A DNA stretch of 64,000 bases. It comes from Thermoplasmatales archaeon. Lineage in GTDB: Archaea > Thermoplasmatota > E2 > DHVEG-1. Below, in pieces: positions 17,104 through 49,645 of this stretch; the first letter of the stretch is position 1; each line of letters opens with the position of its first letter. The stretch is from assembly GCA_030672305.1 (NCBI GenBank), contig DAOVGR010000047.1, positions 17-64,016 on the forward strand, written 5' to 3'. The notes under the pieces were generated by a model. It ran no database searches. It worked only from the letters and a program-made list of their open reading frames with translations, and was not told where the DNA came from. The position numbers and the translations under genes were made by a program.

Positions 17104-18297
17104 CTATGCCTCAGATGAAATTTTCATGAGGGGCCTTAATTTCATCAACAAGGTTGGATGTTTAAGTACTAAAGCCTTAACAAGGGCAAAAGTACTAATC
17201 TCATCAAACTTGATATCTTTTAACGAGTCAGCAAGCATATTTAATGTTTTATCATCAAAATCAAGGAAAATTTCCTTAACCATATAATTTCTCTTAAGCT
17301 TCTTACCAAAAGCCTCCTTCCAACCTGTTTCATAAGATGAAAGTGTTTCTTTATCAAATTGCTGTTGTTCTATCGCCATTCCAATAGTTTCTCCTGCTAT
17401 TTTTCCAGCCTCCAAACAGTGAGTTAGGCCACCACCTGTAATCGGATCTACCTGTCTTGCTGAATCTCCAACTAAAATTATATTATCTTTAACAGTTTCC
17501 ACAGGATTTGCGACAGGGACCGCTCCAGCAAGAAATCGAATAGGATTTCCATTTTTTAACCTAGGATTATTTGCAATAAATTGATCAAGAAGTTTTTTAG
17601 GCATTCCAGCTTCACTTAAATTTCCTAAAACTCCAATACCTACATTAGCAACATCTTTTCCTTTTGGAAAAACCCAAATATACCCTCCTGGGGCAATCTT
17701 ATTACCTAGATAAAAATCACAATAAGCTTCTTTACAATCAATGTTTGTTAGAGTATACTGACAACAGGTTTCTAGATCTTTAGGATCAAGTCTAGTATCA
17801 ATACCTGCCCATTGTCCAATTTTAGATTCTACGCCATCGGTTCCAACAACGATATCTGCTTCAATTTCAATTTCATCATCATACTGTTTAGCCTTCACAC
17901 CAATTATTTTATCTTTCTCTCTTAAAAGATCAATTGCATTTGTATTCATTACAATTTTTGCACCAGCTTTAGCAGCCTGACGTGCAAGCTCTTGATCAAA
18001 AATATCTCTATAGACCACATAACCAGTTTCATTTCCAGCCATTTCTGCTGATAGTTTTACCATAGTACCATCTGGAGAAAAGATTCTAGCACCCTCCATA
18101 TTACATGCAATCCATCTTTTACCTTCAAGCATTCCCCATTCATCGATTTTTCTACTTACACCCTCTCCGCAAAGAACGGGAACACCAATTTCTTGCCTAC
18201 GTTCAATAATTAGAACTTTTGCTCCTGATTCTGCTGCAAAACGAGCGGTGACAGTCCCAGCAGGACCTGCACCAACTATAACAACATCATATTTCAT
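17104..18297 (-). CDS. Geranylgeranyl reductase (digeranylgeranylglycerophospholipid reductase family)
   Basis: MKYDVVIVGAGPAGTVTARFAAESG FAD-binding fold, plus VGTDGVESK and LVGDSARQVDPITGGG. The ORF track extends to 18441, but the homologous N-terminus begins at ATG 18297. Confidence 0.85.
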   Translation of the reverse strand: MKYDVVIVGAGPAGTVTARFAAESGAKVLIIERRQEIGVPVLCGEGVSRKIDEWGMLEGKRWIACNMEGARIFSPDGTMVKLSAEMAGNETGYVVYRDIFDQELARQAAKAGAKIVMNTNAIDLLREKDKIIGVKAKQYDDEIEIEADIVVGTDGVESKIGQWAGIDTRLDPKDLETCCQYTLTNIDCKEAYCDFYLGNKIAPGGYIWVFPKGKDVANVGIGVLGNLSEAGMPKKLLDQFIANNPRLKNGNPIRFLAGAVPVANPVETVKDNIILVGDSARQVDPITGGGLTHCLEAGKIAGETIGMAIEQQQFDKETLSSYETGWKEAFGKKLKRNYMVKEIFLDFDDKTLNMLADSLKDIKFDEISTFALVKALVLKHPTLLMKLRPLMKISSEA

Positions 18298-18487
18298 TTG
18301 CAGCATACCTCCCGCTAATCGCGCCAATAGGGCATATTCGAATACAGATTGCACAGCTGATACATTTTTCCTCTGTAACAAGAGCTCTTCCACCAAACAT
18401 TGAAAGAGCATCCTGTGGACAAACTGATATGCATCCTCCACAAGCTAAACATATATTCCTATCGACTATTGCTTTAGGCTTTCCCAT
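18287..18487 (-). CDS. 2x[4Fe-4S] ferredoxin
   Basis: CLACGGCISVCP and CISCAICIRICP cluster motifs. The gene overlaps the GGR start by 11 nt. Confidence 0.85.
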   Translation of the reverse strand: MGKPKAIVDRNICLACGGCISVCPQDALSMFGGRALVTEEKCISCAICIRICPIGAISGRYAANEI

Positions 18488-19802: not shown

Positions 19803-19869
19803 TAATTGGTCCCTGCCACAGAATCTGCGAATCTGTTATAAATCTTTGTAAATATACATTTCTAAAATT

Positions 19870-21057
19870 ATGTTAGAATATGATGCTATAATTGTTGGAG
19901 GCGGCCCAATTGGAGGTTACATTGCTGGAAAGATTGCAGAGAAAAAATTTAATGTTGCTTTATTAGAAAAAAACAAAGAAATCGGGGTTCCAATGAACTG
20001 CGCAGGGCTTATCACACCTAGGGTATTTGATTTATTAGAAATATCAAAAAAACCTATTATTGAAAATAAAATCAAAGGAGCAAATATTCATTCCCCTTCT
20101 GGAAAAATTTTGAAAATTGGGGGAGATAAGATTCATGCATTGGTAATAGATCGGTCAAAGTTTGACAAAGAAATAAATAAAAAAGGAAAAGAAAAAGGAG
20201 TTGAGGTTTTTTTAGAAAATAATGTATTATCAGCTCAAAAAATTGAAAAGCAAATAGAGATCAAGACCTCAAAAAACCATGATTTTAAATGTAAATTACT
20301 TGTTGGTGCAGATGGTCCTTATTCAAAAGTTAGAGATAGGTTTGCATTTCCTGAACCAAAAGAATTTTTAAGGGGAATGGGGGCAGAGATAACAAATACT
20401 AATTTAGATCCAAATTTTGTTGAGATATTTGTTGGAAAAAACATTGCACCTGGTTTTTTTGCTTGGATAATACCAACAAATAAAGATGGAACCAGAGCAA
20501 GGATTGGGTTATGTATAAGTCAGGAATCTCCTAAATTTCCAAAGTATTATTTTTCAAATTTGTTAAAGAGTAAAATTACTTCGGATCTCATAAGTAACGC
20601 AAAAATTACTAAGCGGTTTGGAGGAGTTATACCTTTAGGTGCTTTGAAAAAGACATATGATTCTAATATACTTCTTGCAGGTGATGCAGCCGCACAGGTG
20701 AAACCTACATCAGGGGGAGGAATTTATACTGGACTTAAATGTGCAACTCACTGTTCAAATGTTTCAATTGAGGCTTTAGAAAAAAATGATTTTTCTTCTC
20801 AATATCTTAAAAAATATCATAAATTTTGGTTTGCAGATATTGGAAAAGAGCTAAATCTCGGAATGAAATTTAGAAAGGTATTTAAACATTTTACAGACAA
20901 ACATTTTGATAAGTACATAGAAAAATTTCAAAGCCCAAAAATTAATGAAATCATTTCTAGATATGGAGATATTGATTATCCTTCTAAACTTATAAAACCG
21001 ATGCTTAAAAAAACACCTTCTCTTCTAAGACTTTTACCAACAGCAATAAAGGATTAA
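19870..21057 (+). CDS. Geranylgeranyl reductase family FAD-dependent oxidoreductase (second paralog)
   Basis: YDAIIVGGGPIGGYIA, LVGADGPYSKVR and LAGDAAAQVKPTSGGGI motifs. Confidence 0.8.
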   Translation: MLEYDAIIVGGGPIGGYIAGKIAEKKFNVALLEKNKEIGVPMNCAGLITPRVFDLLEISKKPIIENKIKGANIHSPSGKILKIGGDKIHALVIDRSKFDKEINKKGKEKGVEVFLENNVLSAQKIEKQIEIKTSKNHDFKCKLLVGADGPYSKVRDRFAFPEPKEFLRGMGAEITNTNLDPNFVEIFVGKNIAPGFFAWIIPTNKDGTRARIGLCISQESPKFPKYYFSNLLKSKITSDLISNAKITKRFGGVIPLGALKKTYDSNILLAGDAAAQVKPTSGGGIYTGLKCATHCSNVSIEALEKNDFSSQYLKKYHKFWFADIGKELNLGMKFRKVFKHFTDKHFDKYIEKFQSPKINEIISRYGDIDYPSKLIKPMLKKTPSLLRLLPTAIKD

Positions 21058-24198: not shown

Positions 24199-24252
24199 TA
24201 CATAAGTTAATTATAAATAAGGGAATAAATTTACGTTTGTAAATATTCTAAG

Positions 24253-27200
24253 GTGAATTTAATGAGAAAAAGAGCTCAAAGACGAATTCGGCCAACATCA
24301 GAAGATCCAAAATATATCGCTAAGTCATCAAGACCAATTTTAGAAAAAAAGCAATTTAGCGTTAAAAAAAATTGGTGGATAGCAATTGCACTAGTTGGTA
24401 TATTTTTCATGGTTTTATTTTTAAATTCTTACTTCAATGTTGCTAGTGAGGTTTCAATAAATCCAGAGGGTGAAGGCTTCAACAAGTTTTATTTATCTGG
24501 ACCTGACCCATACTATAATTTAAGGCTTGTTAAAGAAACCTATGAAACAGGTAAATATCCTTTCTTTTATGAGCCAGATCCCTTACTTAATTATCCTCTC
24601 GGTTCAGCAGGTGGTAGAGCTCCATTATTTAATATGATGGCTTTAGGTTTCAGCCGAGTTTTATCACCATTTATTGATGAAATCGAAGCTGTTGGATATG
24701 CAATGCAGTTTGTTCCAGCATTATTTGGAGCTTTATTGGTATTTGTAGTTTATTTTATAGGAAAAGAACTTTTTAACAAAAAAGCAGGTCTTTTTGGAGC
24801 ATTTTTCATTGCAATTATCCCAATTCATCTTGGGTCTGGTCATGGATCAGCATATGGGCTTTTTGACCATGACTCTTTCAATCTTTTACTATTTTTCCTT
24901 ACTTTCCTATTTTTAATAAAAGCTATTAAAGAAAAAGATTCAACAAAATCAATGTTATATGCTATTCTTGGAGGTGTGCCTCTTGCAGGATTATCGATGA
25001 CCTGGGTAGAGGCTCAATATCTGTACACTGTAATTGCTATTTATGCAATTGTACAGATGTTGTTTGATATCTTCACAAATAAGATAGAATTCAAGGTCTT
25101 TAGAACCACTTCACTTATCCTTTTTTCAGGTTATTTAATTTCTGCTCCAGTCATTTCATTTAGACCTGATGGATTTTCACCAAATATTACTCTGTATATA
25201 TGTATATTTGTTGCACTTTTTGGTGTAATATATTATTTATTTGGTAAATTAAAAATCCCATGGACAATATCTTTTCCAACAATTATGGTCATGGGCGTTG
25301 CTGGTTTAGGAATAATTTATTTTGCTAAAGATTTAACTCAACAATTTTCTTTCCTAGCCCCCTTACAAAAACTATCAACAGTGATATTTGGGACTGGTAT
25401 CTATGGTAAGAAAGTTTCTATGACTATCGCAGAGGCCGGTACTTATCAAATTAGTCAAACTGTTATGTCATTTGGGCCTGCGATATATTGGATTGGTTGG
25501 GGTGGGCTTGTCTATCTTATTTATCATTATTATAAAAATAAACTTCGCAGGGAATATTTGTTTATTATCATATTATTTGTAACTAATATTTGGTTAGCAG
25601 GTATTGCTGGTCGTTTTTTAAACGATATGGTTCCTGTAATAGTTGTTCTTTCTGGTTGGATTGTTTGGCTTTTCGTTGAATGGATAGATTACAAACAAAT
25701 GTTAAGAAATATAAAGAGCTCTGGTGGAGGATTACATGGTATTCGTCGGGGTGTAAAATTCCTTCATATTTTTGGTATTTTATTTTTAGCCTTAATTGTA
25801 ATATTACCTAATGTTTTTGTAGCTTTTGATGCAGCAGTACCAAGTGTACCTAAACAAAAAGAAGATGGCACATGGACCTCTTTAAAGGCATATATGTATG
25901 GAGATGACAATTATAGAGGTGCTTATGGTTTAGGAATTGTTAAAGAAAAATATTGGCAAGATGCTTTCGAATGGTTAAGTGAACAGGATACTAACATTAA
26001 TGATTCTAATAATAGACCAGGTTTTATTTCGTGGTGGGACTATGGATTCTATGCGTCAGCACTTGGTGAGCATCCCACAGTTGCTGATAATTTCCAAGAT
26101 GGAATTCCAGTTGCAGCAAATTTCCATACAGCTGTTAGTGAAAAGGAAGCAGTATCTGTCTGGATAACTAGATTGTTAGAAGGAGAAAAAAGACATAACG
26201 ATGGTAAACTCACGGAAGCTACAGCCCACGTTCTGATAGATCATTTAGGTGAGGATAACAAATCTAAGGTAGAACAATGGATATTAAATCCTACAGCATC
26301 TCCGTCCTTTGCAGATCCTATTGGAGAGGAATATGATGAAGAAACTAGTATGCAATATACGGTGGGTCAGCAATATCCAGAAAATGCTGCTTATAATGAC
26401 ATAGTTGAACTTTTAAACAGCACTCTTGATGAGGAAAAGATAACATGGCTTTATCATGATCTCCAGGAATCTACAGGTTGGAGTATTCGCTATTATGGCG
26501 TTGAAGGTTATGATAGACAAATTTTCAACATTTTTTCATTTTTGTCTGATAAAAGTTTACTTTTAATAAATGGTATTGCAGATGATTATGTAGAGCTTCT
26601 TTATGAGGGATATATAATTGATCCTTCTACAGGACAGAAAAAACCTGGATCAGACGCCACTTGGACTGCTGTTGAAGTAATAAATTGGGATAAAGAAGAG
26701 AGAAAATTCAATGTCGTTACGAACACACAAACAAAACAAAAAGATCTGTATTTTGATACGATGTTTTATAGGACTTATATTGGTCCTGCACAAGGAGAAT
26801 CTCCTGATAAAAAGGAATTTGAATATCAAATTCCATGTGTAAATATGAAACATTTTTATGCGGAATTTTTCTCAGATTTATCATTATATCCATACTATGA
26901 CACTGGAAAAGCTGCTGTGGTAATTGCGAAGTACTATGAGGGTGCATTTCTTAATGGAACAGTTTCCTTTATGGGAGAGCCGGTTGATGCAACAGTTATT
27001 GTTCAAAAGAATGTTACTTACTATGGAGATTATTCAGCTCCGATTGATCATGATAAAATTACTACATCAGAAAATGGTAACTTTTCTCTTATTGCTGGTG
27101 CTGGAGCAAGACTTCAAATACTTAGAAATTATCCTGAAAACATCCAACCATTTGCAATGAAAAATTTGACTTTTGATGGGGAGGTAGGCTCTGAATTTGC

Positions 27201-28425
27201 ACCTATCTCTGATGATGATGCAATGAGAAAAGGAACTAATTACGAGAGATTTTTAAACGTTTCAATTGAACCTGCTAATTTAGAAGGTCATATATATAAT
27301 GATAAAAATGGTGATGGGTTCTATAACAAATCAGTTGATACTCCGTTACAAGACGTCTACATCGAGATGTATGATATAGCAAATCCGCAATCACCAATAA
27401 CAAGAACAACGAATAAATTTGGGTTTTTTAAAGTTACAGATTTAATGCCAGGTTATTATTATGTAAGAGCAATCAAAGATGGTTACTCATTAAATGAACG
27501 ATTACTCGATTTATATGAAGATAATAACTATTTTAACATTTCTGAATTGAAACATTCTTCAATTGAAGGAAAAGTTTACTTCGAGGATGAATCAAATACT
27601 GTTAACGATACAACCATATTACTACTCTATAAACGTATGAATATCCAAGGAGAAGTTGATGAAGAGTTTTTAGTTAATAACACAGATACAGATGCAAATG
27701 GAAGATATGCATTTTATGATCTTGTGCCAGGTGAATATGAACTGCAAATTCAAAAAGGTCTCATATATAGACAACTTGAAGAAGTTACATTAAGAGAAAA
27801 TGAGACATTGATACATAATGTTTCATTAGAATACAATCCGGTAAGAGTAGTTGGAGCTACCAGATATAATGGAATTGGTGTAAGAAATATTGAAATCATT
27901 TTCAATCCAGATAGTGTTGTAGAAAACAATACTGCTGAAAGAAGAGAAACGATAACTACTGAAGAAAACGGTCTCTATCAAATTGATCTAACACCAGGTT
28001 CATACAATGTTACTGTTCTAGATAGAGAAGGACAAATCTTAGTTTACTCATTTAATGACATTTTGGAATTACAGATTGGAGAAGGTAAACATTCATATAA
28101 TATTTCTTTAACCAAGCATTCGACCAATTTAAGCGGTTTCACCTTGTATAATGATATAAATATTCCTAATATAATAGATATTAGATTTACTCCTGATAGA
28201 AGTATCGTTAATAACACAGCTATCTATGGTGTAACAGTTGAATCAGATGAAACAGGATATTATACTGTAGAATTAGCACCTGGATCATATAATGTTACAG
28301 TCGACCATGAATTTACAGAAAACGGGCAAAACTATTCCTATATTTTCAGTAGTAACTTAGAAATTAGCATTGAACCATTAATAATAACTTCTGACATTAA
28401 AATGATAAGAGAAGAAACTGATTGA
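24253..28425 (+). CDS. aglB: Archaeal oligosaccharyltransferase AglB (STT3 family) with a long C-terminal array of Ig-like/carboxypeptidase-regulatory-like modules
   Basis: Polytopic N-terminal half followed by the signature FISWWDYGFYA (WWDYG motif). About 490 C-terminal residues form five repeated beta-sandwich-like modules. The GTG start is at 24253, with ATG at 24262. Confidence 0.85.
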   Translation: MNLMRKRAQRRIRPTSEDPKYIAKSSRPILEKKQFSVKKNWWIAIALVGIFFMVLFLNSYFNVASEVSINPEGEGFNKFYLSGPDPYYNLRLVKETYETGKYPFFYEPDPLLNYPLGSAGGRAPLFNMMALGFSRVLSPFIDEIEAVGYAMQFVPALFGALLVFVVYFIGKELFNKKAGLFGAFFIAIIPIHLGSGHGSAYGLFDHDSFNLLLFFLTFLFLIKAIKEKDSTKSMLYAILGGVPLAGLSMTWVEAQYLYTVIAIYAIVQMLFDIFTNKIEFKVFRTTSLILFSGYLISAPVISFRPDGFSPNITLYICIFVALFGVIYYLFGKLKIPWTISFPTIMVMGVAGLGIIYFAKDLTQQFSFLAPLQKLSTVIFGTGIYGKKVSMTIAEAGTYQISQTVMSFGPAIYWIGWGGLVYLIYHYYKNKLRREYLFIIILFVTNIWLAGIAGRFLNDMVPVIVVLSGWIVWLFVEWIDYKQMLRNIKSSGGGLHGIRRGVKFLHIFGILFLALIVILPNVFVAFDAAVPSVPKQKEDGTWTSLKAYMYGDDNYRGAYGLGIVKEKYWQDAFEWLSEQDTNINDSNNRPGFISWWDYGFYASALGEHPTVADNFQDGIPVAANFHTAVSEKEAVSVWITRLLEGEKRHNDGKLTEATAHVLIDHLGEDNKSKVEQWILNPTASPSFADPIGEEYDEETSMQYTVGQQYPENAAYNDIVELLNSTLDEEKITWLYHDLQESTGWSIRYYGVEGYDRQIFNIFSFLSDKSLLLINGIADDYVELLYEGYIIDPSTGQKKPGSDATWTAVEVINWDKEERKFNVVTNTQTKQKDLYFDTMFYRTYIGPAQGESPDKKEFEYQIPCVNMKHFYAEFFSDLSLYPYYDTGKAAVVIAKYYEGAFLNGTVSFMGEPVDATVIVQKNVTYYGDYSAPIDHDKITTSENGNFSLIAGAGARLQILRNYPENIQPFAMKNLTFDGEVGSEFAPISDDDAMRKGTNYERFLNVSIEPANLEGHIYNDKNGDGFYNKSVDTPLQDVYIEMYDIANPQSPITRTTNKFGFFKVTDLMPGYYYVRAIKDGYSLNERLLDLYEDNNYFNISELKHSSIEGKVYFEDESNTVNDTTILLLYKRMNIQGEVDEEFLVNNTDTDANGRYAFYDLVPGEYELQIQKGLIYRQLEEVTLRENETLIHNVSLEYNPVRVVGATRYNGIGVRNIEIIFNPDSVVENNTAERRETITTEENGLYQIDLTPGSYNVTVLDREGQILVYSFNDILELQIGEGKHSYNISLTKHSTNLSGFTLYNDINIPNIIDIRFTPDRSIVNNTAIYGVTVESDETGYYTVELAPGSYNVTVDHEFTENGQNYSYIFSSNLEISIEPLIITSDIKMIREETD
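26940..28422 (+). repeat. Five tandem divergent domain repeats inside aglB
   Basis: Recurring pattern ...(E/D)xNG.Y.(F/I/V).L.PG.Y.(V/L). Examples: SENGNFSLIAGAGA, NKFGFFKVTDLMPGYYYVRA, DANGRYAFYDLVPGEYELQI, EENGLYQIDLTPGSYNVTV, DETGYYTVELAPGSYNVTV. Confidence 0.7.
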
Positions 28426-38441: not shown

Positions 38442-39451
38442 TGGTAAAAATGAAGGACTATCTAATACTAATTCGCCCTTATGGTATGCTATTTCTAGGT
38501 TTTACACTCGTTTTTGGTGCAATTGCCAATGGTGAATTCAATTTTTTTCATTTAACATTACTTCTTATAATGGGTTTATTTGCTCATATATTTACATTTG
38601 TCCAAAATGATTATTATGATGTTGCAACTGATAGCAAATCAAGTTATGTATCAAATAGACCCCTAGTTAAAGGAAGTATCACTCAAAAAAAGGCATTTGT
38701 AATATTTTTTGCTTCTTTTTTAATATCATCATTAATTGCCATTGTCTTCTTATTTAGCTACTACTCATTTGCTTTATTATTGCTTTCTTTTTTATTTATT
38801 ACACTTTACAATAAATATAGTAAAAAATTCTTTGGAATGGAATATATACTAGGCATGGGAGTATTTACTTATGGCATATTTGGAGCATTGACTGTTTCAA
38901 ATATTATTTCCAATCTTGCAATAATCGTTTCATTTTTTGGGTTTATGCAGTGGTTGTTTAGTGTTGGTGTATCTGCAAACCTAAAAGATGTTGAATATGA
39001 TAGTAAACTTGGTATCAAAACCACACCTACGAAATTTGGAGTAAAAGCATCAAAAGAGGAATTAATCATACCTCTATCATTTAAAATGTATGCAGTTGGA
39101 ATTAAAATAATACATCTAGTAATTGCAGCATTACCCTTACTTTTTGGATATACCTCAATATTTGTTTATAACCACCCAATACCAGGATTTTTTTTCCTGG
39201 TAATATCTATAATAGTGCTTTATTTTACAATAAAAATTTTAACAACACCAATAAAAGAACGAGAAAAAATGCTAATTTATGTGGGATTACAAGAGGGACT
39301 AGCACTACTTTTACTTCCTATTTTACTAATGAGTATTCTAATAGATAAGTTTGGAATAATTCAAACATTTTTACTTGTGATATTATTCATTTTTTGGCCT
39401 TTATTTTGGTTCAGAATACTATATGGTAAAAAAATGATACCTTTAGAATAA
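38441..39451 (+). CDS. UbiA-family prenyltransferase (DGGGP-synthase-like)
   Basis: NDYYDVATDSKSSYVSNRPLVKG (first Asp-rich motif) and DVEYDSKLGIKT (second motif), with ~8-9 TM helices. The exact substrate cannot be determined from sequence alone. Confidence 0.7.
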   Translation: MVKMKDYLILIRPYGMLFLGFTLVFGAIANGEFNFFHLTLLLIMGLFAHIFTFVQNDYYDVATDSKSSYVSNRPLVKGSITQKKAFVIFFASFLISSLIAIVFLFSYYSFALLLLSFLFITLYNKYSKKFFGMEYILGMGVFTYGIFGALTVSNIISNLAIIVSFFGFMQWLFSVGVSANLKDVEYDSKLGIKTTPTKFGVKASKEELIIPLSFKMYAVGIKIIHLVIAALPLLFGYTSIFVYNHPIPGFFFLVISIIVLYFTIKILTTPIKEREKMLIYVGLQEGLALLLLPILLMSILIDKFGIIQTFLLVILFIFWPLFWFRILYGKKMIPLE

Positions 39452-39453
39452 TT

Positions 39454-40026
39454 CTATTTTTCACAAATTTTTACAAAATTCCTAAAGATTTGTTCACCAT
39501 ACTCAGTATGCTCAACTTCAGGATGAAACTGTAGTCCATAAAATGGTTTTTCCTTGTGTTTCATTGCTTGTGTCTTACAATTTTCACTATCAGCAAGTAA
39601 ATAAAAATTATCTGGAATCTTTTCTACTTCATCATTGTGAGATTCCCAAACAATAGATTTTTCAGGAACTTTTGTAAACAACTCATTTTCTTTTATAATT
39701 GTTAGTTCAATTTTACCAAATTCTGGTAGTTTGGATGGTTTTACTTCCCCGCCGAAAAACCTTGCCATGAATTGATGACCTGCACAAATCCCTAGAGCTG
39801 GAAAATTAGCCTTTTCAAGATATTCTGCACAATTTCCGAGATCACCTTCTAGCCCTATTCTTGGAGCACCACCGGATAAAACTAGACCATCAATATTTTC
39901 TTCTACCAAATCATTAAATGGCGTAGTATTTGCAACAATTTTTGTATTAACATCAAGGTCTCTTAACCTTCTCCATTCTCTATGAGTCCACTGTCCCCCA
40001 TTGTCAACAACAAATATTTTTACCAT
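39454..40026 (-). CDS. guaA: GMP synthase, glutamine amidotransferase subunit
   Basis: VVDNGGQWTH, the nucleophile context GICAGHQ, and QFHPE. ATG 40026 (MVKIFVVDN) is preferred over 40041. Confidence 0.88.
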   Translation of the reverse strand: MVKIFVVDNGGQWTHREWRRLRDLDVNTKIVANTTPFNDLVEENIDGLVLSGGAPRIGLEGDLGNCAEYLEKANFPALGICAGHQFMARFFGGEVKPSKLPEFGKIELTIIKENELFTKVPEKSIVWESHNDEVEKIPDNFYLLADSENCKTQAMKHKEKPFYGLQFHPEVEHTEYGEQIFRNFVKICEK

Positions 40027-40027
40027 T

Positions 40028-40975
40028 TTATTCCCATTCAACAGTACTTGGAGGTTTATTTGTTATATCATAAACAACTCTATTTACTTTATCTTTCAAG
40101 GTATTTGTAATACGAGTAGAAATACAATCGATAACCTCATTAGGAATTTTACTAAAAGCACATGTCATTGCATCTATACTATGAACTGCTCTAACTGCTA
40201 TTACATATCCATAGGCTCTTTTATCACCATGAACGCCAACAGATTTGACTGGAAGAAGAACAGCAAAATACTGCCATGGCATCTCCATTCGTTTTTTTTC
40301 TACTGCTTCTTCAATTTCTTTCTCAACTATATCACATGCTTCTCTGACAATCTCAGTTCTTTCTGGTGTTGCCTCACCAATAATTCTTATAGCAAGTCCA
40401 GGACCCGGAAAGGGTTGACGTTCAGAAACTGACAAATCAAGAACTCTAGCAACCTTTCTAACCTCGTCTTTATAAAGATCACGAAGAGGCTCAATAAGGT
40501 TTAACTTCATAACTTCAGGAAGACCACCAACATTATGATGGGACTTTATTGTATCTCTAAGTGCTCCACCAGATTCAATCCAATCAGGTGCAATAGTTCC
40601 CTGCACAAGAAATTTAATATTCTCATCTTCGGCAACTTTTTCAAAAATTCTAATGAATTTTTCTCCAATAATTTTCCGTTTTTTCTCAGGATCTTCAACA
40701 TTTTTCAATTCAGAAAAGAATTCCTTACCCGCATCTATAAAGCGGTAATTAAGTCCGATTTCTTCCATTAATTTTTTTACATTTACTGACTCATTTTTTC
40801 GCATGTACCCTGTATCAACATGAACAGCAATGAGTCTATCTCCAATAGCCTTATTTACGAGTGCAGCACAAACAGTACTATCGACTCCTCCAGAAAAAGC
40901 AATTAATGCTTTTCCGGTGATTTCATTTTTAAGTTTTGCAATGGTTTCTTTTATAAATTTCTCAGCATTGAACAT
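40028..40975 (-). CDS. guaA: GMP synthase, ATP pyrophosphatase subunit
   Basis: PP-loop AFSGGVDSTV, plus HHNVGGLP and FPGPGLAIR. Confidence 0.9.
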   Translation of the reverse strand: MFNAEKFIKETIAKLKNEITGKALIAFSGGVDSTVCAALVNKAIGDRLIAVHVDTGYMRKNESVNVKKLMEEIGLNYRFIDAGKEFFSELKNVEDPEKKRKIIGEKFIRIFEKVAEDENIKFLVQGTIAPDWIESGGALRDTIKSHHNVGGLPEVMKLNLIEPLRDLYKDEVRKVARVLDLSVSERQPFPGPGLAIRIIGEATPERTEIVREACDIVEKEIEEAVEKKRMEMPWQYFAVLLPVKSVGVHGDKRAYGYVIAVRAVHSIDAMTCAFSKIPNEVIDCISTRITNTLKDKVNRVVYDITNKPPSTVEWE

Positions 40976-40984
40976 TTTTTCTCT

Positions 40985-41440
40985 TTATTTTTTAATAATC
41001 TTATCTCTCATTCTTTTTCTATAATCTTTAATTTTTTTTGTTAAATTTTTATCTTTTATTGATAGAATTTCTATGGCAAAAAGAGCAGCATTATCCCCTC
41101 TGTCAAGACCAACTGCACCAACTGGTATACCTGGTGGCATTTGAACAATTGAAAGTATTGCATCAAAATTTACCTTACCACTAACAGGTACTCCTATAAC
41201 AGGCTTTGTAGTATGGGCCGCGATACTTCCTGGTAATGCTGCAGAAAGCCCAGCAACTCCAATGAAAACATCAGCATCACTTTTTTCAATAATTTCCTTT
41301 AAGTAATCAGGAGTTCTATGTGCTGATGCAACTTTAATAATGTAATTTACATCAAATTCATCGAGTATCTTTTTTGCTTTATCAGCAACTGGCATATCAG
41401 ATTCGGACCCAAGAATTATCTGAATTTTCATATCTATCAA
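40985..41440 (-). CDS. purE: N5-carboxyaminoimidazole ribonucleotide mutase (PurE)
   Basis: [30 protein letters not shown] and GVPV motifs. Confidence 0.88.
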
Positions 41441-41554
41441 ACCTGGGAATGGACATTTATTAGTTAATAGTTTCGACCTTACTCAATTCAATAAATTTAA
41501 ACTAAAATTATATATAATGATATTTTTTATTAAGTTTAAAAAAATTCAAATATA

Positions 41555-42326
41555 GTGGTAACTATGACAGAAAATGAAGATCTTACATTTAGAAGATTCA
41601 GAATATTCAATGCAATAATGGGTGGAGTTCATTTATTACAGGTTTTTTTAGTTTTATATCTTAGTAATAATTTTTCATTACCGCTAACAATTACAAAACC
41701 CGTATACAATGAAATAACAAATTTCAATTACCCCTGTTTCTGAAACTCTTTTTTCAATTAGAGTTGGCCCCTTAGTGGCAATGTTTCTTTTTATTTCAGC
41801 AGTAGCACATATATTGATAGCAACTGTTCTTTACTATCGGTATGTTCAGAATTTAAAAAATCATACGAATCCCTATAGATGGTTTGAATATTCCATTAGC
41901 GCTTCTTTTATGATAGTAATTATTGCTATGTTGACTACCATTTATGATATTGGTACACTGCTTGCTCTATTTACATTAACAGCTGTTATGAATCTTATGG
42001 GACTCATGATGGAAATACATAATCAAACAACACAAAATACAAATTGGACATCATATGCCATTGGATGTATTGCAGGATTAGTTCCATGGGTTGTAATATT
42101 CATACCATTAATCTCAGCTGAATCAGTACCTGATTTTGTAATATACATATTTGTTTCAATTGCGATATTTTTTAATTGCTTTGCAATTAATATGTACTTA
42201 CAATACAAGAAAATCGGAAAATGGAAAAACTATCTTCATGGAGAAAAAGTATACATCATTTTAAGTCTTGTAGCAAAATCAGCTCTGGCATGGCAAGTAT
42301 TTGCAGGAACATTAAGACCAATGTAA
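41555..42326 (+). pseudogene. Heliorhodopsin, split into two ORFs by a +1 frameshift (one extra base)
   Basis: ORF 41555-41743 (FRRFRIFNAIMGGVHLLQ...LSNNFSLPLT) and ORF 41775-42326 (RWFEYSISASFMIVIIA ... YLQYKKIGKWKNYLHGEKVYIILSLVAKSALAWQVFAGTLRP) together match heliorhodopsin end to end. The second frame is already open from 41718. Removing one C from the CCCC run at 41731-41734 gives the continuous reading NFNYPVSETLFSIRVGPLVAM. Confidence 0.85.
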
Positions 42327-42440
42327 AAATGTTTATATATTTAAGATAATAATAAAATTGTAAACATTTTGTTATTTACTCGTCGTAAAATAATTATATG
42401 AGATTCCTATGTTCAGTTCAAATTAAAAATTGGAATATAA

Positions 42441-44465
42441 ATGAAACTAATCATTTGTGAAAAAAATATTGCAGCCAAGCGAATTGCATACATTTTATCT
42501 GGTGGAAAATCTACAACCACCAGACTAGGAACCACTCCCGTATATGAATTTAAAAAGGATGATGAGATCTGGAAAATTGTTGGTTTAAGAGGACATATCA
42601 TAAATCTCGATTTCCCTGCTGGATTTAATCAATGGAAAATGGTTTCTCCAGTTGACTTAATTCCGGTAGAACCATGTAAAATTGTAAGTGAAAAAAGTAT
42701 TGCTTCAGCATTGAAATCACTTGTCGATAAAAATCCATTTTTAATTGTAGCAACTGATTATGATAGAGAAGGGGAGCTAATCGGTGTCGAGGTAATTAAT
42801 CTCATTAAGGGTTATAATAAAGAAATAAATTTAATAAAAAGAGCAAAATTTAGTGCAATTACAAATCAAGAGATTAGATCTGCTTTTGATAAACTTTCAG
42901 AAATTGATTATAACCTCTCAAATGCAGGAGAGTCCCGTCAAATTATTGATCTGATTTGGGGTGCTGTTCTGACTCGTTTTATATCTTTGACTTCTCAAAG
43001 ACTTGGAAAAGAATTTCTTTCTATTGGAAGGGTTCAGTCGCCAACCCTTGCTCTTCTTGTAAAAAGAGAAAAAGAAATTAAAAATTTTGAACCTAAGACG
43101 TTTTGGAAGATTATAGCAACTCTGAAAAAACAGCAGTCATTTAATGCAGACCATAATAAAGGTCAGTTTTGGGATGAAAATCAAGTAAATGAAATCTTTT
43201 CAAAGATAAAATCCAGTAAAAATGCAACAATAAAAAAAGTTGATAAGAAAATCTTAAAAGAGTATCCACCCGCTCCATTTAATACAACTTCATTTTTAGA
43301 GTCTGCAACTCATCTCGGTTTTTCTGCAGCAAAAGCAATGAGTATTGCTGAAGAGCTTTACATGAATGGTATTATTTCATATCCGCGAACAGATAATACA
43401 GTTTATCCACATTCATTAAACATCAAAGGGATTTTACAGAAACTTACTAACTCTCAATTTTCAAAAGAAGCAAATGAAGTTTTAAGCAACGGTAGGTCTA
43501 GCCCAACTCGTGGAAAAAAAATGACCACAGATCATCCGCCAATTCATCCTGTTGGTGTTCCAATAAATGTTAATCTTAGCACTGATCATCAAAGGATTTA
43601 TGAACTCATTTGTAGAAGGTTTTTGGCAACATTGGCAAAGGATGCTATTTCAGAAAGTGTTAATCTTTCTATTGATATTTCTGGTGAAGAATTTCTTGCA
43701 AGTGGTTATAAAATTCTTGAACCAAACTGGAGAAATATCTATACATACTTCAAAGAAAAAAGAAAACCACTTCCTGAACTAATTGAAGGGGAAAGATTAG
43801 AAGTTATAAAAATTATTTTAAAAGAGGATCAAACGAAACCTCCTAAGAGATATACTCAGGGTTCTTTAATTACTAAAATGGAGCAGCTTTTACTTGGTAC
43901 GAAATCAACACGTCATGAAATTATTAACAAATTATTCCTGAGAAAATATATTACTTTGTCTCCTCTTGCTCCAACTCCTATAGCTATTGCAGTAATTGAT
44001 GCTTTAGAAGATTGTGATGTTGTTAAACCACAAATGACTGCAACCCTTGAGACAGATATGGACCTTATTTCAGAGGGTAAAAAGACTTTGGATGAAACCG
44101 TTAATGAATCACGAAAGATGCTTACAAGTGTTATGAATACACTTGAAAAGGACAAAGAAAAAATAAAAATCAGTATAAAAGAAGCTCAATTGAAACAAAA
44201 TACTGTTGGAAAATGTACTAAATGCGACAAACCAATGATTATAAGAATTTCAAGGAATAATAAAAGATTCGTTGGTTGTACTGGTTTTCCAGATTGTAAA
44301 AATACTTATTCTCTTCCCCAAAAAGGAAATATTGTTGTTACTGAAAAAGTGTGTGAAGAGTGTAATGCACCCATTGTTAAAATCAAATCAAAAGATAAAA
44401 GAGCTTGGGAACTTTGTATTAACAATGAATGCTCTGCTAAAAAACCTTCTTACAAAAAAGGATAA
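42441..44465 (+). CDS. topA: DNA topoisomerase I (type IA) with C-terminal zinc ribbons
   Basis: Toprim motifs LIICEK and TDYDREGE. Catalytic Tyr context GIISYPRTDN. Zinc-ribbon Cys4 motifs CTKCDKPM...CTGFPDC and CEECNAPI...CINNEC. Confidence 0.9.
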   Translation: MKLIICEKNIAAKRIAYILSGGKSTTTRLGTTPVYEFKKDDEIWKIVGLRGHIINLDFPAGFNQWKMVSPVDLIPVEPCKIVSEKSIASALKSLVDKNPFLIVATDYDREGELIGVEVINLIKGYNKEINLIKRAKFSAITNQEIRSAFDKLSEIDYNLSNAGESRQIIDLIWGAVLTRFISLTSQRLGKEFLSIGRVQSPTLALLVKREKEIKNFEPKTFWKIIATLKKQQSFNADHNKGQFWDENQVNEIFSKIKSSKNATIKKVDKKILKEYPPAPFNTTSFLESATHLGFSAAKAMSIAEELYMNGIISYPRTDNTVYPHSLNIKGILQKLTNSQFSKEANEVLSNGRSSPTRGKKMTTDHPPIHPVGVPINVNLSTDHQRIYELICRRFLATLAKDAISESVNLSIDISGEEFLASGYKILEPNWRNIYTYFKEKRKPLPELIEGERLEVIKIILKEDQTKPPKRYTQGSLITKMEQLLLGTKSTRHEIINKLFLRKYITLSPLAPTPIAIAVIDALEDCDVVKPQMTATLETDMDLISEGKKTLDETVNESRKMLTSVMNTLEKDKEKIKISIKEAQLKQNTVGKCTKCDKPMIIRISRNNKRFVGCTGFPDCKNTYSLPQKGNIVVTEKVCEECNAPIVKIKSKDKRAWELCINNECSAKKPSYKKG

Positions 44466-47906: not shown

Positions 47907-47998
47907 AATAGTTATTTTATTTTTTACTAATTTATTTTTTTTATTTTTTTTTTAAGGTAGCAATATTTTTATAATCTTTATTGTTTTAGGGGATATTA

Positions 47999-48694
47999 AT
48001 GCCAAAATTATCAAATGCAGAACTTCTAGAAAATGTATTGCATGGACTCTTTACTACAGCTGGTAGTAGGACTAGTCAAAACTTTGCGGGTGCAGTTATA
48101 CATGCAATAACAAAAGCACTAGAACAAAAATATGATTTTTTAAACTATGTTAAATTTAATATTAAAGGAGAATCTGATGAATTGGTAAGTATTTCTTCAG
48201 ACTTAAATTCTATTGATATCATGAGATTAGGTCAAGCAGTTGAAGCTATTTTAAAAGTTATTTGTATGGATTTTAAGGATAAGGCTGGACTTTATTTTAT
48301 AAATGAGTTTAAGAAAAATATTGGAGAACAAGCTATATCTGATCTTAAGGAAGTCGGTATAGATTTTGAACTACTTAAGATTCAGCAACATTATTTATAT
48401 AGGCATCATGAAAGAATAAAAAGAAAATCTAAGACTGATGATTTTGTAGATAAGAAAGAGAAAAGTTTATTAGATTATTCATGGGAAAATGTATCAAAAT
48501 GGGATTATAATGCTGACAATCATACTTGTAAAATTTATGACAAAGATGGGAAACTTTTAGATCTAGTGGATTTAGATGAAATTGTTAAAAAATACGTTCA
48601 TTATTTAACTGAAGCTGAATCCCTTAAAACAACTACAGATTATAATTTGGATAAAAAGGATAAAGGTTTGAAGAAGAAGAAATCATCAAATTAG
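47999..48694 (+). CDS. Unknown-function protein, tandem paralog 1
   Basis: Shares with the next gene an N-terminal ~130-aa domain, the motif QQHYLYR(H/R)H, and a C-terminal module LL.YSW.NVS.W......N..C.IYDK.GK.LD...LD.IV.KY. A TATA-like TTTTTATAAT lies at 47966-47975. Confidence 0.6.
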   Translation: MPKLSNAELLENVLHGLFTTAGSRTSQNFAGAVIHAITKALEQKYDFLNYVKFNIKGESDELVSISSDLNSIDIMRLGQAVEAILKVICMDFKDKAGLYFINEFKKNIGEQAISDLKEVGIDFELLKIQQHYLYRHHERIKRKSKTDDFVDKKEKSLLDYSWENVSKWDYNADNHTCKIYDKDGKLLDLVDLDEIVKKYVHYLTEAESLKTTTDYNLDKKDKGLKKKKSSN

Positions 48695-48751
48695 AAGCAT
48701 CTCTATCTGGAGATAAAATATTTCTAATATACCGATAGGAGAGGGAGCGAT

Positions 48752-49645
48752 ATGTCTAAATTGCAAAATTCTGATCTGCTAAGAAGCATAATAAAAGCTG
48801 TTTACATTACAGCAAGTAGAAGAACTACTCCAAGTTTTGCAATTGCAGTTTTAGGTGCTATTACTAGAACACTTGAACAAAGGTTTGATTTTTTAAAAAA
48901 TATTGTTTTCCGCGAAGAGAGAGGAGCTGAGGATTTTGTAATGGTTAATTGTAATGTTAACTCTATTGAACCATTAATTATCGCAAAAGCTATAGAAACT
49001 ATTGTTCAGGTTGTGTATATGGATCTTAGTGAAACGGCGGGATTTTTCTTTATAAAGGAGTTGATGAGGAATGCTGGTGACAATGTTATTTCAAATCTTA
49101 AAGATATTGGTGTTGATTTGGAGCTCATTCAGATTCAACAGCATTATTTGTATAGACGTCACAGTAAAAGTACTAAAAATAAGTTAAATAAGGGGCAAGA
49201 GCAAATTGATAATGTGAGTCTCCTTGGTTATTCATGGAAGAATGTTTCAAACTGGACATTCGATACTGATAACAAAACATGTATTATTTATGATAAAAAT
49301 GGTAAAGAATTAGATTATTTAAACCTTGATACAATTGTTAGAAAATATATTAGTAGCATATCAGCAGATAGTGATGCTAATATAACTGATGAAAATAAAG
49401 AGGAAATAAAGAAAATTGAGCTTACTAAAAAAGAGTTTGAACTTTTAAATATCATTCAAAGACAAGATATCGATTTTGAATCTGCTTCTATATTGCTACG
49501 CATGTCTCAAGGAGAACTGAAGGATACAATTCTAAAATTATTAACCCTTGAATTATTACATTATATATCATATGATGAAGTAGCATTAACAGAAATTGGT
49601 GTGCAATATTTAAGTGAAAGAAAAAAAGCTGTAAAAACAGTTTGA
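48752..49645 (+). CDS. Unknown-function protein, tandem paralog 2, with an extra C-terminal winged-helix-like domain
   Basis: Aligns with paralog 1 over ~200 aa. The extra C-terminus LTKKEFELLNIIQRQDIDFESASILLRMSQGELKDTILKLLTLELLHYISYDEVALTEIG resembles a MarR/wHTH domain. GGAGAGGGAG lies upstream of the ATG. Confidence 0.6.
   Translation: MSKLQNSDLLRSIIKAVYITASRRTTPSFAIAVLGAITRTLEQRFDFLKNIVFREERGAEDFVMVNCNVNSIEPLIIAKAIETIVQVVYMDLSETAGFFFIKELMRNAGDNVISNLKDIGVDLELIQIQQHYLYRRHSKSTKNKLNKGQEQIDNVSLLGYSWKNVSNWTFDTDNKTCIIYDKNGKELDYLNLDTIVRKYISSISADSDANITDENKEEIKKIELTKKEFELLNIIQRQDIDFESASILLRMSQGELKDTILKLLTLELLHYISYDEVALTEIGVQYLSERKKAVKTV

Follow-up and report, generated by a model that had tools for sequence, protein, structure and literature searches.

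Does the window, the whole 64-kb stretch of archaeal DNA analysed here, encode a working heliorhodopsin, or has a single extra base cost its host the gene? An intact heliorhodopsin is a seven-helix retinal protein of inverted topology, with a cytoplasmic N-terminus and all-trans retinal; a slow-cycling sensor or regulator responding to light is its proposed role. Heliorhodopsins form dimers via a long extracellular A-B beta-hairpin. In the window, the coding sequence for such a protein is distributed over two open reading frames (ORFs) on the + strand (41564-41743 and 41724/41781-42326), which represent one heliorhodopsin gene with its frame broken by a single base. The break may be a mutation carried by the cells, an error introduced on the way to the assembly, or a feature that the cells can read through or work around.

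Identity of the split gene

The first ORF runs on the + strand from GTG 41555 or ATG 41564 to the TGA at 41741-41743. The second frame, also on the + strand, is open from 41718, just after the TAA at 41715-41717, to the TAA at 42324-42326, and its earliest start codons are GTG 41775 and ATG 41781. A preliminary description of this DNA had the second frame already open at 41718 and the first closing at 41743, and both positions are confirmed in the sequence. It had also taken the two ORFs together for heliorhodopsin along its whole length. The joined protein does span profile positions 2-242 of 242 of the Pfam family Heliorhodopsin (PF18761), with a score of 307.8 bits (cut-off 26.7, E = 6e-92). 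The C-terminal ORF by itself scores 267.6 bits over positions 61-242, and the short N-terminal ORF gives a weak match to positions 2-34. PF18761 is the sole family matched in the Pfam scan of the joined protein, the outcome of the profile search that had been proposed as a check for another seven-helix family. Such a family is ruled out by this single match together with ~90% identity to a heliorhodopsin of solved structure.

That heliorhodopsin is TaHeR, from Thermoplasmatales archaeon SG8-52-1 (KYK26602.1; structures 6IS6, 7CLJ and 7U55). It has the same length as the joined protein, 253 aa, aligns with it without gaps (E = 1.5e-150) and falls with it in one 90%-identity protein cluster. In TaHeR the retinal is bound at Lys-238 with Glu-108 as counterion, and roles have been described for the polar residues of the Schiff-base cavity, His23, Gln26, Ser78, His82, Ser112 and Trp243 (PMC9385722). 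All eight positions are the same in the joined protein. The motifs quoted in the preliminary description (FNAIMGGVHLLQ, RWFEYSISASFMIVIIA and IILSLVAKSALAWQVFAGTLRP) are present, and its statement that the key residues are intact extends to the Schiff-base lysine, the counterion and the other cavity residues. The alignment with characterised heliorhodopsins that it recommended keeps Lys238 (codon AAA, 42276-42278) in register. All residues that are invariant across 30 aligned sequences are kept, including His23, Gln26, Ser78, His82, Ser112, Lys238 and Trp243. Glu108 (GAA, 41886-41888) is listed as nearly invariant in this alignment, which takes in an E108D crystallisation mutant.

On these comparisons the locus is a TaHeR orthologue from another Thermoplasmatales archaeon, which is related, uncultured and of low GC content. 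The gene comes from a different species, since it differs from TaHeR at ~25 amino acids with ~90% identity. From that identity the protein, once restored to one frame, is predicted to have inverted topology, to bind retinal and to have a slow photocycle, as established by experiment for TaHeR. The nearest sequence found is that of L001, a Thermoplasmatales MAG (binchicken_co129_679, CAZHIY010000036.1) with 94% amino-acid identity, and by this measure the repaired protein is a new sequence of the TaHeR clade. L001 is 88% identical to the window at the nucleotide level over 8.9 kb, and its gene order is identical. Other close relatives have 80-86% DNA identity, and at 80-88% the nearest relatives are also different species; this range describes the DNA flanking the gene in those intact relatives, not in the contig of TaHeR.

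More distant members of the family are easily recognised. HeR 48C12, a freshwater actinobacterial protein (6SU3/6UH3), belongs to the same family and shares its architecture, including the long A-B hairpin, but it is bacterial and far more distant (E ~1e-56 vs ~1e-150 for TaHeR), and its hairpin turn is GPPG, not a polar motif (PMC9385722). The zinc-ribbon-fused heliorhodopsins of Thermoplasmatota (Znf-HeRs; PMC8612252) have a homologous rhodopsin core at 71-78% identity. Their N-terminal CxxC…CxxC extension of ~52 aa is missing from the window gene and from its close clade. Archaeal examples had been called few; the searches returned thousands of homologues, many of them in genomes and metagenomes of Thermoplasmatota.

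Position of the extra base and its effect on the protein

The features of the locus are listed below.

41506-41518, + strand: TATA-like AAATTATATATAA, conserved in the alignment with L001, L081, L082 and L084; putative function.
41555-41561, + strand: SD-like GTGGTAA before ATG 41564, conserved with L001, L081, L082 and L084 (GGTGAT in L081); putative function.
41564-41722, + strand: heliorhodopsin codons 1-53 in the original frame, covering the cytoplasmic N-terminus, helix A (His23, Gln26) and the first strand of the A-B hairpin to Asn53 (tblastn, TaHeR alignment).
41722-41724, + strand: TTT run with one extra T, the frameshift between codons Asn53 and Ser54 (gap against L001, tblastn, codons of 16 relatives).
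41723-41743, + strand: out-of-frame tail of the truncated product, …N-FNYPCF-stop (translation; 59-aa gene called in Logan contig L088).
41724-42326, + strand: codons 54-253 in the +1 frame and the stop TAA at 42324-42326, covering the second hairpin strand and helices B-G (tblastn, Pfam, dN/dS).
41731-41734, + strand: CCCC run, which in the correct frame belongs to ACC CCT (Thr56-Pro57), where relatives read ACA/ACT CCT (codon comparison).

In tblastn searches with the intact proteins of two relatives, residues 1-53 map to 41564-41722 with 83-87% identity and residues 54-253 to 41724-42323 with 90-92% identity. The frame switch falls between the end of residue 53 at 41722 and the beginning of residue 54 at 41724. 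The DNA alignment with the intact orthologue of L001 has a sole gap, at AAATTTC in the window vs CAA-TTC (in context, ACAAATTTCAATTACCCC vs ACCAA-TTCGATTACACC). At the codon level, each of the 16 relatives inspected reads TCN/ACN ATH after an AAY codon or a variant of it, and the extra base occurs in none of them. The four closest read AAT/AAC TCN ATT NCN CCN (Asn-Ser-Ile-x-Pro), where the window reads AAT-T-TCA ATT ACC CCT. L001 has ACC AAT TCG ATT ACA CCT at the site, lacks the extra T, and its ORF is intact. Set against the AAT TCA of relatives, the lesion is an expansion of TT to TTT at 41722-41724.

That one extra base accounts for the split, as the preliminary description had it, agrees with the single gap in the alignment with L001. 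Its choice of a C in the CCCC run at 41731-41734 does not hold, as the DNA, tblastn and codon comparisons all place the base ~10 nt upstream, in the TTT at 41722-41724. Deletion of a C does open the frame, but contradicts both the DNA and the protein alignments. The protein that it gives (…NFNYPVSE…), which had been called seamless, retains three out-of-frame residues at the A-B loop tip and loses the nearly invariant Ile55. Deletion of one T instead reads ...NEITNSITPVSETLF... (…NSITPVSE…) and brings back the family consensus TNSI[ST]P, in which Asn53 and Ile55 are nearly invariant, and Pro57 fully so, across the 30 aligned sequences. For annotation, the gene is best repaired by removing one T at 41722-41724; the C-deleted version is unsuited for expression. 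The CCCC run itself arises from a synonymous change of ACA/ACT to ACC, followed by CCT.

The insertion site coincides with the tip of the A-B hairpin (Asn53/Ser54). In TaHeR, the extracellular A-B loop consists of ~30 residues in two antiparallel strands, and its apex, residues 46-56 with Asn-53 at the tip, is dynamic (PMC9385722). Deletion of the hairpin leads to aggregation and to complete loss of retinal binding (PMC9385722). In the window the loop is fully encoded and conserved in the DNA, with the frameshift at its apex, and the encoded product has no second strand. An uninterrupted frame from start to stop is absent from the window (frame switch 41722/41724, 0-frame stop 41741-41743) and likewise from Logan contig L088, an assembly of the same region.

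With a single T inserted between codons Asn53 and Ser54, at the hairpin tip, translation from ATG 41564 would yield only a 59-residue peptide, comprising helix A, a single strand of the hairpin and six residues read out of frame. The other 200 codons, among them those for the counterion and the retinal lysine, would no longer be in frame. Loss of function is the expected outcome, since this product lacks the second strand, and a product restarted at Met73 would be missing that strand and the beginning of helix B. The allele would then be a fresh loss-of-function allele, fixed or dominant in the sampled population.

Origin and age of the insertion

The plain reading of the locus is a very recent loss-of-function allele, and we consider this reading probable. 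That the insertion was present in the template DNA at all carries a somewhat higher probability, by far the larger part of which belongs to plain loss of function. Two assemblies contain the extra T: the contig at NCBI and the one that Logan built from run SRR26080966. Logan contig L088 from this run is 100% identical to window positions 41424-44302 over 2879 nt, extra T included, and a second Logan contig of the run is 100% identical to positions 38595-41176. Products of 59 aa and 181 aa are recorded from both NCBI and Logan. Since an independent assembler gives the same extra T, an artefact of one assembler is ruled out. In de Bruijn assembly with an abundance threshold, a variant is kept only if it occurs in repeated reads and lies on the dominant path; by this general understanding of how such assemblies work, an error in one read is ruled out as well. 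The insertion is presumably present in the DNA of the cells.

An old or decaying pseudogene is rejected by the state of the gene. In pairwise comparisons with four intact orthologues, dN/dS is 0.06-0.11 for the whole gene and 0.053-0.10 downstream of the break (0.053 vs L001). By parsimony, the lineage of the window has 16 unique synonymous and five unique non-synonymous changes, the latter all conservative (K10R, I41L, M101T, T165A and I176V); the corresponding ratios in intact relatives are 20:7, 24:12, 41:16 and 27:19. With 3.55 non-synonymous sites per synonymous site, ~57 non-synonymous changes would be expected under neutrality. The gene is estimated to have evolved neutrally for ~1% of the terminal branch, with an upper bound of ~14%. 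Further lesions in the gene (stops, indels or lost conserved residues) are absent, and the TATA-like and SD-like motifs upstream are conserved. With the gene and its upstream signals undamaged and purifying selection strong, the insertion, if real, must be evolutionarily very recent.

No disrupted heliorhodopsin was found among 166 loci of relatives, drawn from genomes and metagenomes. A full-length single match is present in 160 of these, five are cut by contig ends, and one (L055) has an apparent in-frame stop, which proves to be the natural end of the gene, two residues earlier. Decayed copies in relatives, which the preliminary description had named as a sign of a true pseudogene, are therefore missing from all 166 loci. 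A real insertion would make this lineage a possible natural knock-out, deprived of a gene that strong purifying selection maintains in all of its relatives, and a comparison with intact sister strains of the same habitat could hint at what heliorhodopsin is needed for. For rhodopsin biology itself there is little new, as crystal structures from the TaHeR clade exist already and the defect amounts to the simple insertion of one base.

A sequencing or consensus error is the main alternative, although an unlikely one. The gene of the cells would then be intact (AAT TCA) and its heliorhodopsin functional, with the extra T introduced in library preparation or stemming from the reads. Apart from the T the gene is perfect, and purifying selection on it is strong. 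Under such selection, seen in all 166 undisrupted loci of relatives, a loss-of-function allele is a priori somewhat unexpected, which keeps this explanation alive. The NCBI and Logan contigs may also share the reads of one run, so that a systematic read or library-amplification error is possible, and the sequence around the indel, AAATTT, consists of short homopolymers. However, the extra T is reproduced by an independent assembler, and Illumina-type data rarely give a consensus error from TT to TTT. Far longer homopolymers of the same gene (T7, T6 and A6) are of correct length, while the indel falls in a run of only 2-3 bases, a pattern unlike that of homopolymer-prone chemistry.

The rest of the window also speaks against an error. 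No further frameshifts were found in ~60 ORFs over the 64 kb, using Pfam scans and the proteins of relatives, and a poor assembly with other frameshifts is rejected accordingly. All 16 neighbouring genes that can be compared with relatives are full length and in one frame, with no split gene among them. Among the 20 ORFs that make up suspicious adjacent same-strand pairs or runs, no family is split; all are separate genes, and those with a Pfam match cover most or all of the profile.

Searches for the same strain in other data returned no second copy of the allele and no intact version of it. The exact repaired protein is absent from the 90%-identity protein clusters checked, and a hidden intact allele of the same strain within them is rejected, the sole multi-member candidate cluster being made up of other strains. 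A strain-specific DNA pattern that allows either TT or TTT has no match in JGI metagenomes. Protein-guided searches for a same-strain contig gave best identities of 94% in GTDB representative genomes and 91% in JGI metagenomes. Exact matches to the window topA product and to the 183-aa product of the GTG start were not found. As leads to other samples, the exact guaA, 59-aa and 181-aa products point only to Logan run SRR26080966, and no paper was found in the literature under this accession.

It is very improbable that the extra T is real and a working photoreceptor is made all the same, by recoding or by assembly of split fragments; either route would give a natural recoded or split heliorhodopsin. 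Recoding would consist of a +1 ribosomal frameshift at CCC_U (41731-41735), leading, perhaps at a low level, to a full-length protein with …NFNYPVSE…, whose hairpin tip would be remodelled, with FNY for SIT. Among the 0-frame codons ahead of the stop, CCC_U (41732-41735) alone would allow its tRNA to re-pair in the +1 frame. A tRNA-Pro would be able to re-pair from CCC to CCU, and the 0-frame stop follows just two codons downstream. The three changed residues would lie within the loop apex, residues 46-56, which is dynamic (PMC9385722). Against such a shift, the codons between the insertion and the CCCC run still give the conserved Ser-Ile-Thr in the +1 frame, which shows that the frame was changed only recently. 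UGU, which follows CCC in the 0 frame, is the common codon for Cys (62 vs 20), not a hungry codon, and the 96 nt downstream have no better folding than shuffled sequence (z = +0.41). A long A/T run that could support transcriptional slippage is absent. The extra base occurs in 0 of the 166 loci of relatives, and a shift here is therefore not conserved; by this non-conservation recoding is already largely refuted, and we give it only the slightest chance.

The other route, a functional split, seems equally far-fetched. Here the 59-aa peptide with helix A and a separately initiated fragment of 181 or 183 aa with helices B-G would together form the rhodopsin. In-frame ATG and GTG codons do occur 50-57 nt past the break, and gene callers report the 181-aa product. 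Rhodopsin fragments are also able to complement in vitro; for bacteriorhodopsin, such assembly was reportedly described by Kahn and Engelman in 1992 and by Marti in 1998. However, no SD-like motif is evident before 41775 or 41781, and the gene is split in 0 of the 166 loci of relatives, so that a split is not an evolved architecture. Moreover, a restart at Met73 drops one of the two hairpin strands, the second, along with the beginning of helix B, and the hairpin is reported to be essential (PMC9385722).

Gene neighbourhood and retinal supply

The heliorhodopsin gene is followed by topA on the + strand and preceded by GATase, guaA and purE on the - strand. This gene order is identical in close relatives (SMTZ1, WOR8 and other metagenomes), each of which has an intact 253-aa heliorhodopsin. 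In 79 more distant genome loci, topA, purE or guaA is found beside heliorhodopsin in none (0/79). Heliorhodopsin and topA are consequently rejected as a conserved functional pair; the adjacency is confined to the close clade, and such limited synteny implies no functional link. Some of the closest relatives with the guaA-purE / heliorhodopsin / topA neighbourhood come from the SMTZ and WOR metagenomes of the White Oak River, presumably samples of estuarine sediment.

The window as a whole has a GC content of 32%. It carries archaeal housekeeping genes, among them those for SecY, L15, AglB/STT3, Alba, NucS, a PPDK/PEP synthase-type enzyme and Trm5/Tyw2, and lipid pathway genes (GGGP synthase, UbiA and CarS). 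Rfam and tRNA scans of the window detect only two tRNAs, and none of these features is near the heliorhodopsin locus.

The preliminary description saw no retinal-biosynthesis gene in the window, and this observation stands after Pfam scans. Matches to SQS_PSY, phytoene desaturase, Blh/BCD and carotenoid oxygenase are absent from the 56 ORFs scanned, which are all but a few short ORFs of the 64-kb window; the result applies to this stretch of the genome. Carotenoid or retinal families are also missing among the Pfam annotations of five syntenic orthologues. Lycopene_cycl matches occur in two flavoproteins (17104-18444 and 19852-21057), and these are secondary only. The best matches of both are to the catalytic domain of geranylgeranyl reductase and to FAD_binding_3, and on this basis the two are most likely lipid reductases.

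The heliorhodopsin locus and its intergenic DNA

The divergent guaA-purE genes, the heliorhodopsin gene and topA follow one another in this order in the window (40985-44465) as well as at the relatives' loci L001 (the nearest intact orthologue) and L081-L086. This context is kept only in the clade resembling TaHeR, the structurally solved protein of Thermoplasmatales archaeon SG8-52-1, where the heliorhodopsins are at least ~85% identical, and it was found at none of 79 more distant genome loci. Between purE and the heliorhodopsin gene lies a 48-nt block, ATCAAACCTGGGAATGGACATTTATTAGTTAATAGTTTCGACCTTACT (41436-41483), that is near-invariant across the window, L001, L081, L082 and L084, while the coding DNA flanking it is only 80-88% identical. 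The block has no match in Rfam, and is probably the promoter and leader of purE. An additional segment of ~21 nt (41484-41504) is present in the window and L084 and is missing from L001, L081 and L082.

Zinc-ribbon extension, habitat and selection

The more distant Thermoplasmatota homologues recovered by the homology search (P0037-P0120, e.g. P0043) are mostly 305 aa long, having at their N-terminus a zinc-ribbon extension of ~52 aa with the pattern CxxC…CxxC; they are the Znf-HeRs previously described in PMC8612252. In contrast to them, the heliorhodopsin clade of the window does not have this extension.

Several of the closest intact relatives (loci L084, L090, L098, L103 and others) derive from the SMTZ1 and WOR8 metagenomes, which we take to be sediment samples from the White Oak River estuary, including its sulfate-methane transition zone. 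Light is presumably scarce in such sediments. The heliorhodopsin gene is under strong purifying selection in the clade of these relatives (dN/dS 0.05-0.11), which for a light-sensor gene contrasts with the presumably light-poor origin of several of them.

Other genes in the window

The sole carotenoid-related signal within the window consists of secondary matches to the Lycopene_cycl Pfam family (cut-off 23.4 bits) in two geranylgeranyl-reductase-like flavoproteins, which are most likely archaeal lipid reductases:

17104-18444, -, flavoprotein, 27.1 bits
19852-21057, +, flavoprotein, 37.7 bits

Another gene encodes a long multidomain protein, and four sizeable ORFs matched no Pfam family under the cut-offs applied:

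24229-28425, +, STT3/AglB-type oligosaccharyltransferase, 1398 aa, with C-terminal SdrD_B, CarboxypepD_reg and NOMO-like beta-sandwich domains
7143-7838, -, ORF, 231 aa
12848-13966, -, ORF, 372 aa
21070-23286, -, ORF, 738 aa
61560-62861, +, ORF, 433 aa

The region 1707-5236 (+) resembles a mobile element of the IS66 type whose transposase is unusually large:

1707-2438, +, HTH ORF, upstream of the 941-aa ORF
2411-5236, +, 941-aa ORF with RNase_H_2 and DDE_Tnp_IS66 transposase domains

Two tandem genes are paralogous, and the one copy scanned belongs to no Pfam family:

47990-48694, +, first paralogue
48728-49645, +, second paralogue

The pair is retained in L082 and L084. Every copy in a relative aligns with the two window genes alike, at 73-79% with its orthologue and at 41-49% with the paralogue.
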